Assembly: GCF_003334405.1 (NCBI RefSeq)
Contig: NZ_QOWM01000009.1
Length of the DNA: 64,000 nt
Source: Escherichia coli
GTDB taxonomy: Bacteria > Pseudomonadota > Gammaproteobacteria > Enterobacterales > Enterobacteriaceae
Direction: 5' to 3' (one strand)
Each line of letters opens with the position of its first letter. Position 1 is the first letter of the stretch. This document shows, piece by piece, positions 9,831-9,867 of this stretch. A program made the position numbers and the translations under genes. The notes under the pieces were generated by a model that ran no database searches, was not told the origin of the DNA, and was given only the letters and a program-made list of their open reading frames with translations.

Positions 9831-9867
9831 ATGTTCATCCTTGTAAGTCAAAAGAGAACAATAGCGG

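Follow-up and report, generated by a model that had tools for sequence, protein, structure and literature searches.

Predicted face-to-face promoters interlocked with the divergent bioH and gntX genes of Escherichia coli

The start codons of bioH and gntX, two divergently transcribed genes of Escherichia coli, lie only 37 bp apart, which raises the question of where the promoters of both genes can be accommodated. The divergent arrangement and its spacing had been proposed in an earlier note on this DNA, and both are confirmed here by the coordinates, the annotation and the verified start codons in the window (the whole stretch of 64,000 nucleotides that was analysed). The window belongs to the E. 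coli chromosome: 5,421 of 5,426 RefSeq records span at least 80% of positions 9100-10700, and the RefSeq annotation gives the gene order malQ, gntT, nfuA, gntX, bioH, rpnA, feoC, feoB. MG1655 coordinates are obtained by subtracting the window position from 3,554,712, and the same 37 bp appear in the RefSeq annotation of both strain M217 and MG1655.

Size, conservation and content of the intergenic gap

A false gap arising from misannotated start codons is ruled out by the full-length family models, the N-termini of PDB entries, the conservation of both ATG codons and the distribution of gap lengths. On the plus strand the gntX ATG reads cat at 9828-9830. GntX matches the NCBIfam equivalog NF008616 over positions 1-227 of 227 with 432 bits (cut-off 304), and its 275.7 bits against TIGR00201, the comF subfamily model (cut-off 233.55), place it in the ComF family. 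BioH covers positions 1-256 of 256 of NCBIfam NF007674 with 586.6 bits, above the equivalog cut-off of 449, and matches PDB 4ETW from residue 1 and 1M33 over residues 1-256. Both ATG codons are conserved among the Enterobacterales loci, where gaps of 34, 35, 36, 37, 38, 39 and 41 bp are found; since these lengths differ by non-multiples of 3, neither gene carries a conserved N-terminal extension. The plus strand also contains a 58-aa open reading frame (9695-9871), antisense to the 5' end of gntX, whose TGA stop overlaps the bioH ATG (ATGA). This overlap is probably fortuitous, as the frame is not conservable given the variation of the gap.

The spacing is short for the organism. In 300 kb of MG1655 annotation, 32 divergent protein-coding pairs show gaps of 82-540 bp (median about 210), and the sole smaller gap in this sample, of 24 bp, is found beside the 14-aa ORF yacM. 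A conservation survey with one genome per species found a BioH relative at 74 loci. Every Enterobacterales locus that reaches far enough upstream has a divergent gntX/comF homolog in front of bioH, and the same pairing occurs, with larger gaps, in Vibrionaceae and Pseudoalteromonas; beside bioH in a Thiotrichales MAG the gntX/comF neighbour is absent. In 49 species of Enterobacteriaceae and Erwiniaceae the gap measures 34-41 bp, with a gntX-proximal half that is variable in sequence. Enlarged gaps are found in Yersinia (86 bp), Dickeya (82 bp), Brenneria (53 and 112 bp), Winslowiella iniecta (46 bp) and one Citrobacter (61 bp), and the gap of Rouxiella is probably enlarged too. The short gap and the pairing are conserved, and thus constitute a non-random feature. 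The bioH-comF synteny itself is already known, as a divergent comFC neighbour serves Cronan's group to recognise freestanding bioH genes (PMC5438404); the promoter anatomy of bioH/gntX was not found described in the literature searched.

Three of the surveyed loci deserve separate mention. In Citrobacter sp. MGH106 the 61-bp gap, against 37 bp in its relatives, contains extra sequence between the gntX Shine-Dalgarno (SD) sequence and the A-rich block; the extra sequence leaves both of the −10-like elements described below intact, which makes this locus a natural test case for the effect of spacing. A record labelled Chryseobacterium sp. 18061 carries a typical Enterobacteriaceae bioH-gntX locus with a BioH identity of 79%, and a 673-bp contig under the name Terrisporobacter mayombei shares 99-100% identity with E. 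coli; both records are apparently contaminated or mislabelled public assemblies.

The gap holds both 5' UTRs and is essentially filled by the two ribosome-binding regions (Table 1). On the gntX side, the CCTT/CTCC core of the SD sequence is retained in most species. On the bioH side, the SD region occupies 9853-9857, and the conserved A-rich stretch around it extends as AAAAGAGAAC at 9850-9859. Flanking positions 9844-9849 are poorly conserved (about 0.2-0.3 bits), and only about 7 central bases, 9843-9849, vary freely. With both SD regions filling the 37 bp, there is no room for promoter hexamers between them; the expectation that this interval is too small for two conventional, non-overlapping promoters therefore holds.

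Table 1. Features of the bioH/gntX locus in window coordinates
Feature	Positions	Strand	Sequence	Description
gntX (yhgH) CDS	9147-9830	minus		ComF-family DNA utilization protein, 227 aa; ORF and RefSeq annotation
Predicted bioH −35-like element	9801-9806	plus	TAGCCA	4-of-6 match; 18-bp spacer; gntX codons 9-10, within CATAGCCA
Predicted bioH extended −10	9822-9830	plus	TGTTAGCAT (TG-T-TAGCAT)	reverse complement of gntX codons 1-3 (ATG CTA ACA)
Gap between start codons	9831-9867		ATGTTCATCCTTGTAAGTCAAAAGAGAACAATAGCGG	37 bp; both 5' UTRs and both ribosome-binding regions
Predicted bioH transcription start	9836-9838	plus		A at 9837 (MG1655 3,544,875); inferred from the −10, 7 nt downstream of 9830
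gntX Shine-Dalgarno	9838-9842	minus	AAGGA	7 nt before ATG; plus-strand TCCTT
Predicted gntX P1 transcription start	9849-9851	minus		MG1655 3,544,861-3,544,863; inferred from the −10; 5' UTR about 19-21 nt
A-rich block	9850-9857	plus	AAAAGAGA	contains weak bioH SD; 1.0-1.9 bits per position, 49 species
Predicted gntX P1 −10	9863 to 9858	minus	TATTGT	in bioH SD-ATG spacer, bioH −10 to −5
bioH CDS	9868-10638	plus		pimeloyl-ACP methyl ester esterase, 256 aa; ORF and annotation
Nucleotide-invariant block	9911-9929		ATCTTGTGCTGCTGCACGG	19 nt; bioH codons 15-21, CAT CTT GTG CTG CTG CAC GG
Octamer	9956-9963	minus	AATGCAAC (plus strand GTTGCATT)	bioH codons 30-32
Candidate CRP-S-like site	9965-9986		ACGAGGAACTTAGCTCGCATTT	centre 9975.5, 145.5 bp upstream of gntX ATG

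Conserved −10-like elements at the two edges of the gap

On the bioH strand, the first codons of gntX read as an extended −10 element, in which TG at 9822-9823 stands one base upstream of the hexamer TAGCAT (9825-9830). Of 53 Enterobacterales, 50 have TGnTA(G/A)CAT and all have the core xAnnnT, with T at position 1 in 52 of them. The base n varies among T, G and A, which makes GntX residue 3 Thr in 46 species, Pro in 4 and Ser in 3, while TG is fixed. In Erwiniaceae the element is TGGTAGCAT or TGATAGCAT, so that residue 3 is Pro or Ser instead of Thr, with TG and TAGCAT unchanged. This retention of TG while the encoded residue changes indicates selection on the DNA rather than on the protein. 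Codon usage in the same stretch is also restricted: codon 2 of gntX is the rare leucine codon CTA, 98% conserved, and codon 3 is ACA in every species that has Thr at this position. Upstream, CATAGCCA shows little or no variation among 53 species, and codon 10 (CTA), invariant in 47 species, is one of only four invariant codons among 80 conserved degenerate ones. TAGCCA, within this stretch, is accordingly read as a putative −35 element of bioH.

By an approximate sigma-70 score, the extended −10 site outranks every other plus-strand site in 9720-10000 and is among the top 0.11% of window positions. A strict consensus promoter scan of 9400-10300 returned no promoter, a result that is uninformative, as both candidate promoters discussed here fall just below its thresholds. 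Initiation at the predicted start would give bioH a 5' UTR of about 31 nt. The element is degraded in Brenneria (GGTTAACAT) and Dickeya (CGTCAACAT), both of which have enlarged gaps (53-112 bp), and this combination fits promoter turnover. CATAAT (9808-9813) was also considered as the E. coli bioH −10 and was rejected: it is a good hexamer, but many genera have G in place of its T6, and a −35 is missing.

The opposite edge of the gap carries a comparable signal on the gntX strand. Within the 24 nt upstream of bioH only three positions, −10, −6 and −5, are invariant, and read on the gntX strand they form T-A-n-n-n-T. All 53 species share this pattern, in the form of 13 distinct hexamers, with T1, A2 and T6 invariant and the middle free. 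Positions 1, 2 and 6 are those that matter most for −10 function (10.1101/2020.01.31.928960), and an invariance restricted to them is therefore the expected signature of a −10 element. As a control, the 24 nt upstream of gntX itself contain no invariant position and average 0.50 bits, versus 0.99 for bioH. The A-rich block, read on the opposite strand, covers the region from this −10 to the predicted start of the proximal gntX promoter (P1).

An alternative origin of the same conservation lies in the bioH message, since in 51 of 53 species the invariant T and A near the bioH ATG are also part of an in-frame TAA or TAG stop codon. As the sole reason for the invariant TA this was rejected, because it leaves the invariant base at bioH −10 unexplained; it is retained as a partial rival, and the TA conservation could partly serve bioH translation through the translation-initiation region. 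The P1 hexamer ranks in the top 0.54% of window positions by the approximate sigma-70 score, and only fourth among minus-strand sites. No acceptable −35 accompanies it, the best candidate being CTGCCA with a 19-bp spacer. Lacking a good −35, P1 is probably weak or activator-dependent. By phylogenetic footprinting, comF (gntX) has been given its own promoter in Enterobacteriaceae, in a search that started from −300 and allowed overlap with the upstream ORF (PMC1635313).

From these observed conservation patterns we infer promoter activity and start sites, and the reading that we prefer, at a probability of roughly 0.55, is that bioH and gntX are each transcribed from a sigma-70 core promoter, the two lying face to face and interlocked with both genes. 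For bioH, the −35-like TAGCCA, the 18-bp spacer and the extended −10 supplied by gntX codons 1-3 would direct initiation near 9837; for gntX, the P1 hexamer between the bioH SD and ATG would direct initiation near 9849-9851. The two conserved −10 hexamers are separated by 27 bp and directed towards each other. The predicted starts would cross, giving complementary RNA 5' ends that overlap by about 13-15 nt, and each −10 would lie in the initially transcribed region of the other gene, about 21-27 nt into the transcript. RNA polymerase bound at either promoter (about −55 to +20) would cover the other one, the two footprints overlapping throughout the gap, and occupancy would be mutually exclusive; such overlap may bring about transcriptional interference and co-regulation. 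With the −10-like elements at the far edges of the gap, the −35 and upstream regions would fall inside the neighbouring coding sequences. The conserved gap of 34-41 bp in 49 species, with its variable middle, also points to interlocked promoters.

The earlier note had further argued that at least one promoter must lie inside the neighbouring coding sequence or that the two must overlap face to face. The geometry of that claim is supported by the conserved −10-like elements at both gap edges; the promoters themselves are predicted from sequence. Because each would be embedded in the other gene, separating the genes would cut both promoters, and this would help to explain why the pair has stayed together. 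The arrangement does not imply that biotin synthesis and DNA uptake are functionally linked, and E. coli bioH has been described as not co-regulated with the other bio genes (PMC5438404). In the portions searched of the start-site supplements of Cappable-seq, SMRT-Cappable-seq, an E. coli/Klebsiella TSS profiling paper and a 3'-end/dRNA-seq preprint, no entry was found for bioH, gntX or yhgH, or for their coordinates where these were looked up.

DNA-level constraint inside bioH and other origins of gntX transcription

The coding sequence of bioH contains a nucleotide-invariant block. Of the 135 conserved degenerate bioH codons just five are invariant, and four of these fall in the block, a clustering matched by 0 of 20,000 permutations. 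The block is retained in Yersinia, Dickeya, Brenneria and Rouxiella. Protein constraint was rejected as its cause: in Vibrionaceae and Pseudoalteromonas the same residues, D-L-V-L-(I/L)-H-G-W-G, are encoded with free synonymous variation, and such free codon choice outside the Enterobacterales argues for a constraint on the nucleic acid that is specific to this order. RNA structure was rejected as well, as both strands fold no better than shuffled sequences (z = −0.49 and −0.68), and no Rfam family matched the block. A conserved antisense small ORF or uORF running through the block and the gap was discarded because its start codon is lost in many species and its length ranges from 12 to more than 50 aa. 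Readings as a sigma-32, sigma-54, sigma-E, CRP, FNR, marbox, GalR or SlmA site, compared by eye with consensus sequences, did not fit; TGTGC-N6-ACGGA, centred at −71.5, could be taken for a weak CRP-like site but does not convince. Relative to the predicted P1 start, the block is located 60-78 bp upstream.

Genomic SELEX located an RpoS-holoenzyme binding peak inside bioH, which was assigned to gntX (PMC5493296). The peak corresponds to window position ~10173 (MG1655 v2 coordinate 3,542,562), about 250 bp from the frozen block, a distance that is likely within the resolution of the method.

Further DNA-level constraints occur deeper in bioH. TTGCAT (9957-9962) and nCGCAtTT (9979-9987) persist even where the encoded residues differ: T at 9957 shows 90% conservation though BioH residue 30 can be R, H, D, S, N or Q, codon 31 is TGC in every species with Cys at that position, and codon 38 keeps CG while its residue varies among S, A, P and T. 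The octamer AATGCAAC that covers the first of these motifs reads on its other strand as GTTGCATT, the sequence recognised by CytR. A mismatch search for CRP and CRP-S cores near the gap gave weak matches only and failed to detect the known hofM sites of the window; it was replaced by a CRP-S model retrained on seven E. coli control sites (ppdD, ybaV, ycaI, sxy, ppdA, hofM, sbmC), each a strong asymmetric site sharing GCCTCGCAAA and located 82-176 bp from the ATG. With this model, the candidate centred at 9975.5 shows the highest mean CRP-S score of any aligned position in 56 species. Its score is 1.1 bits in E. coli versus 8-12 bits in Leclercia, Cedecea, Silvania and E. cloacae, the controls reaching 9-21 bits in leave-one-out scoring.

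Similar signals are visible at other E. coli loci. At hofM (31774-31795) and at three MG1655 loci, ppdA, ppdD and ybaV, the bona fide CRP-S site has TGCAAC or AATGCAAC a few bases downstream, in some cases as two copies spaced about 10 bp apart. The hofM site, a strong one, falls within the mrcA coding sequence, so that regulatory DNA of another competence operon is located in a neighbouring ORF; mrcA and hofM form another short divergent pair, about 95 bp apart (window 31866-31960). On the other side of gntX, the 24 nt upstream of nfuA (9089-9112, minus strand; ATG at 9088), TAGTCAACTATTAGGCCA, average 1.45 bits per position in 53 species. This conservation exceeds the needs of a ribosome-binding site and points to a regulatory site. 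Within gntX, a sigma-32 promoter has been described as serving nfuA (PMC9104697), and the exact CCCCAT was not found on the nfuA strand in 9100-9500.

These constraints give rise to the most serious rival for the origin of gntX transcription, namely that its working promoter lies deeper in bioH and depends on CRP and Sxy. The CRP-S-like site would be followed by the octamer, with initiation near 9904-9914; the frozen block would contribute CAAGAT, read on the gntX strand, as the −10 region, the gntX leader, about 75-85 nt long, would run antisense through bioH codons 1-15 and the whole gap, and the TAnnnT beside the bioH ATG would be conserved for bioH translation or for the in-frame stop. Such a promoter accounts for the frozen block, TTGCAT and CGCA as DNA-level constraints inside bioH, and its distance from the ATG is within the range of the controls (−82 to −176). 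At hofM the octamer stands at the same offset after the CRP-S site, as does an xAnnnT hexamer (offset 49-54) in the place of CAAGAT. CRP-S sites inside upstream ORFs have a precedent, the candidate promoter agrees with the published prediction of a CRP-S promoter for comF, and induction requiring Sxy, CRP and cAMP has been shown for ppdD, yrfD and sbmC (PMC1635313). On the other hand, the low E. coli score has to be set against about one chance match expected in the region at the best score seen (4.9 bits), the good half-site of the candidate faces away from gntX while it is gene-proximal in seven of seven controls, and CAAGAT is a poor −10, in the top 8.7% only. Nor does this reading explain the exact invariance of positions 1, 2 and 6 of the hexamer in the gap. 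As a replacement for P1 it is considered unlikely, yet P1 and a deeper, activator-dependent promoter (P2) can coexist, and the signals inside bioH weakly suggest a second promoter of this kind. Taken together, the frozen block and the CRP-S-like site leave room for the physiologically relevant gntX promoter being located further upstream than P1, as it may be.

A wider reading joins both sets of constraints. The first 120 bp of bioH, with the frozen block, the AATGCAAC box and the CRP-S-like site, would serve as the control region of gntX, and the first 10 codons of gntX as the promoter of bioH; mutual embedding would keep bioH and comF/gntX adjacent, and the block would bind a factor that controls the DNA-uptake gene. 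This is put forward tentatively, and as a whole it appears doubtful.

Two further alternatives dispense with a pair of facing promoters. The gene rpnA (yhgA; 10667-11545, minus strand) lies upstream on the gntX strand and converges with bioH, leaving 28 bp between the stop codons (10639-10666), in which a simple scan found no terminator-like hairpin; rpnA transcription could therefore run antisense into bioH towards gntX, which might then have no promoter of its own near the gap. This is judged very unlikely, as it needs 770 nt of antisense transcription through an expressed gene, leaves the −10-type conservation and the DNA-level constraints inside bioH unexplained, and conflicts with the promoter that footprinting assigns to comF (PMC1635313). 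A single symmetric −10 in the gap, firing both ways from back-to-back starts about 18 bp apart, would belong to a class that makes up about 19% of E. coli start sites (10.1101/2020.01.31.928960). Here, however, retention of the SD sequences places the bioH start at or left of ~9850 and the gntX start at or right of ~9846, so that the two could be at most about 4 bp apart, not 7-25 bp flanking overlapping −10 elements as in that class, and the conserved −10-like hexamers are 27 bp apart and face inward. A symmetric promoter is thus extremely improbable, and the interlocked, face-to-face pair continues to be the preferred reading.

Implications and relation to known systems

If the face-to-face arrangement is correct, it provides for annotation a compact and checkable case of promoter elements written in a neighbour's coding sequence. 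Deletions of gntX (yhgH) that take its first codons should also remove the bioH promoter, and recoding of the bioH 5' end should disturb gntX; this would matter for knockout collections, for synonymous-recoding projects and for phenotypes assigned to either gene. In evolutionary terms, mutual embedding would offer a simple explanation for the long-lived bioH-comF synteny. The arrangement opens no new kind of mechanism.

Face-to-face overlapping divergent promoters are present in E. coli at soxR/soxS and bioA/bioBFCD and in Tn10 tetA/tetR. The features predicted for bioH/gntX are those of this class: overlapping core promoters, complementary transcript 5' ends and polymerases competing for the same DNA. 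The differences lie in the gap, only 37 bp here and 85 bp between soxS and soxR in the MG1655 annotation, and in start sites that are predicted rather than mapped. Furthermore, in bioH/gntX one −10 would coincide with the start codon and codons 2-3 of the other gene, the other −10 would occupy the SD-ATG spacer of its partner, and the pair has no known shared operator or regulator.

The bidirectional promoters of Warman et al. (10.1101/2020.01.31.928960) resemble the locus in divergent transcription from closely apposed sigma-70 elements and in conservation at −10 positions 1, 2 and 6; they share a symmetric −10, whereas the −10 elements of bioH/gntX are separate and facing, so that the transcripts would cross. 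Extended −10 (TGn) promoters are matched by the TG-n-TAnnnT of bioH, with its conserved TG, A2 and T6 and its −35 of only four matches in six, with the difference that the predicted bioH element consists entirely of coding sequence on the opposite strand and would be doubly constrained. Regarding the CRP-S promoters, such as those of ppdD and hofM (Cameron and Redfield 2006, PMC1635313), gntX is a comF ortholog for which a promoter of this type was predicted, and its positionally conserved candidate site, about 145 bp upstream of the ATG, falls within the adjacent ORF, as does that of hofM; it differs in its low score in E. coli and in a half-site orientation opposite to that of the seven controls. 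Collectively, these comparisons suggest that bioH/gntX is an unusually compact example of the known class of face-to-face overlapping promoters, working by an ordinary mechanism.
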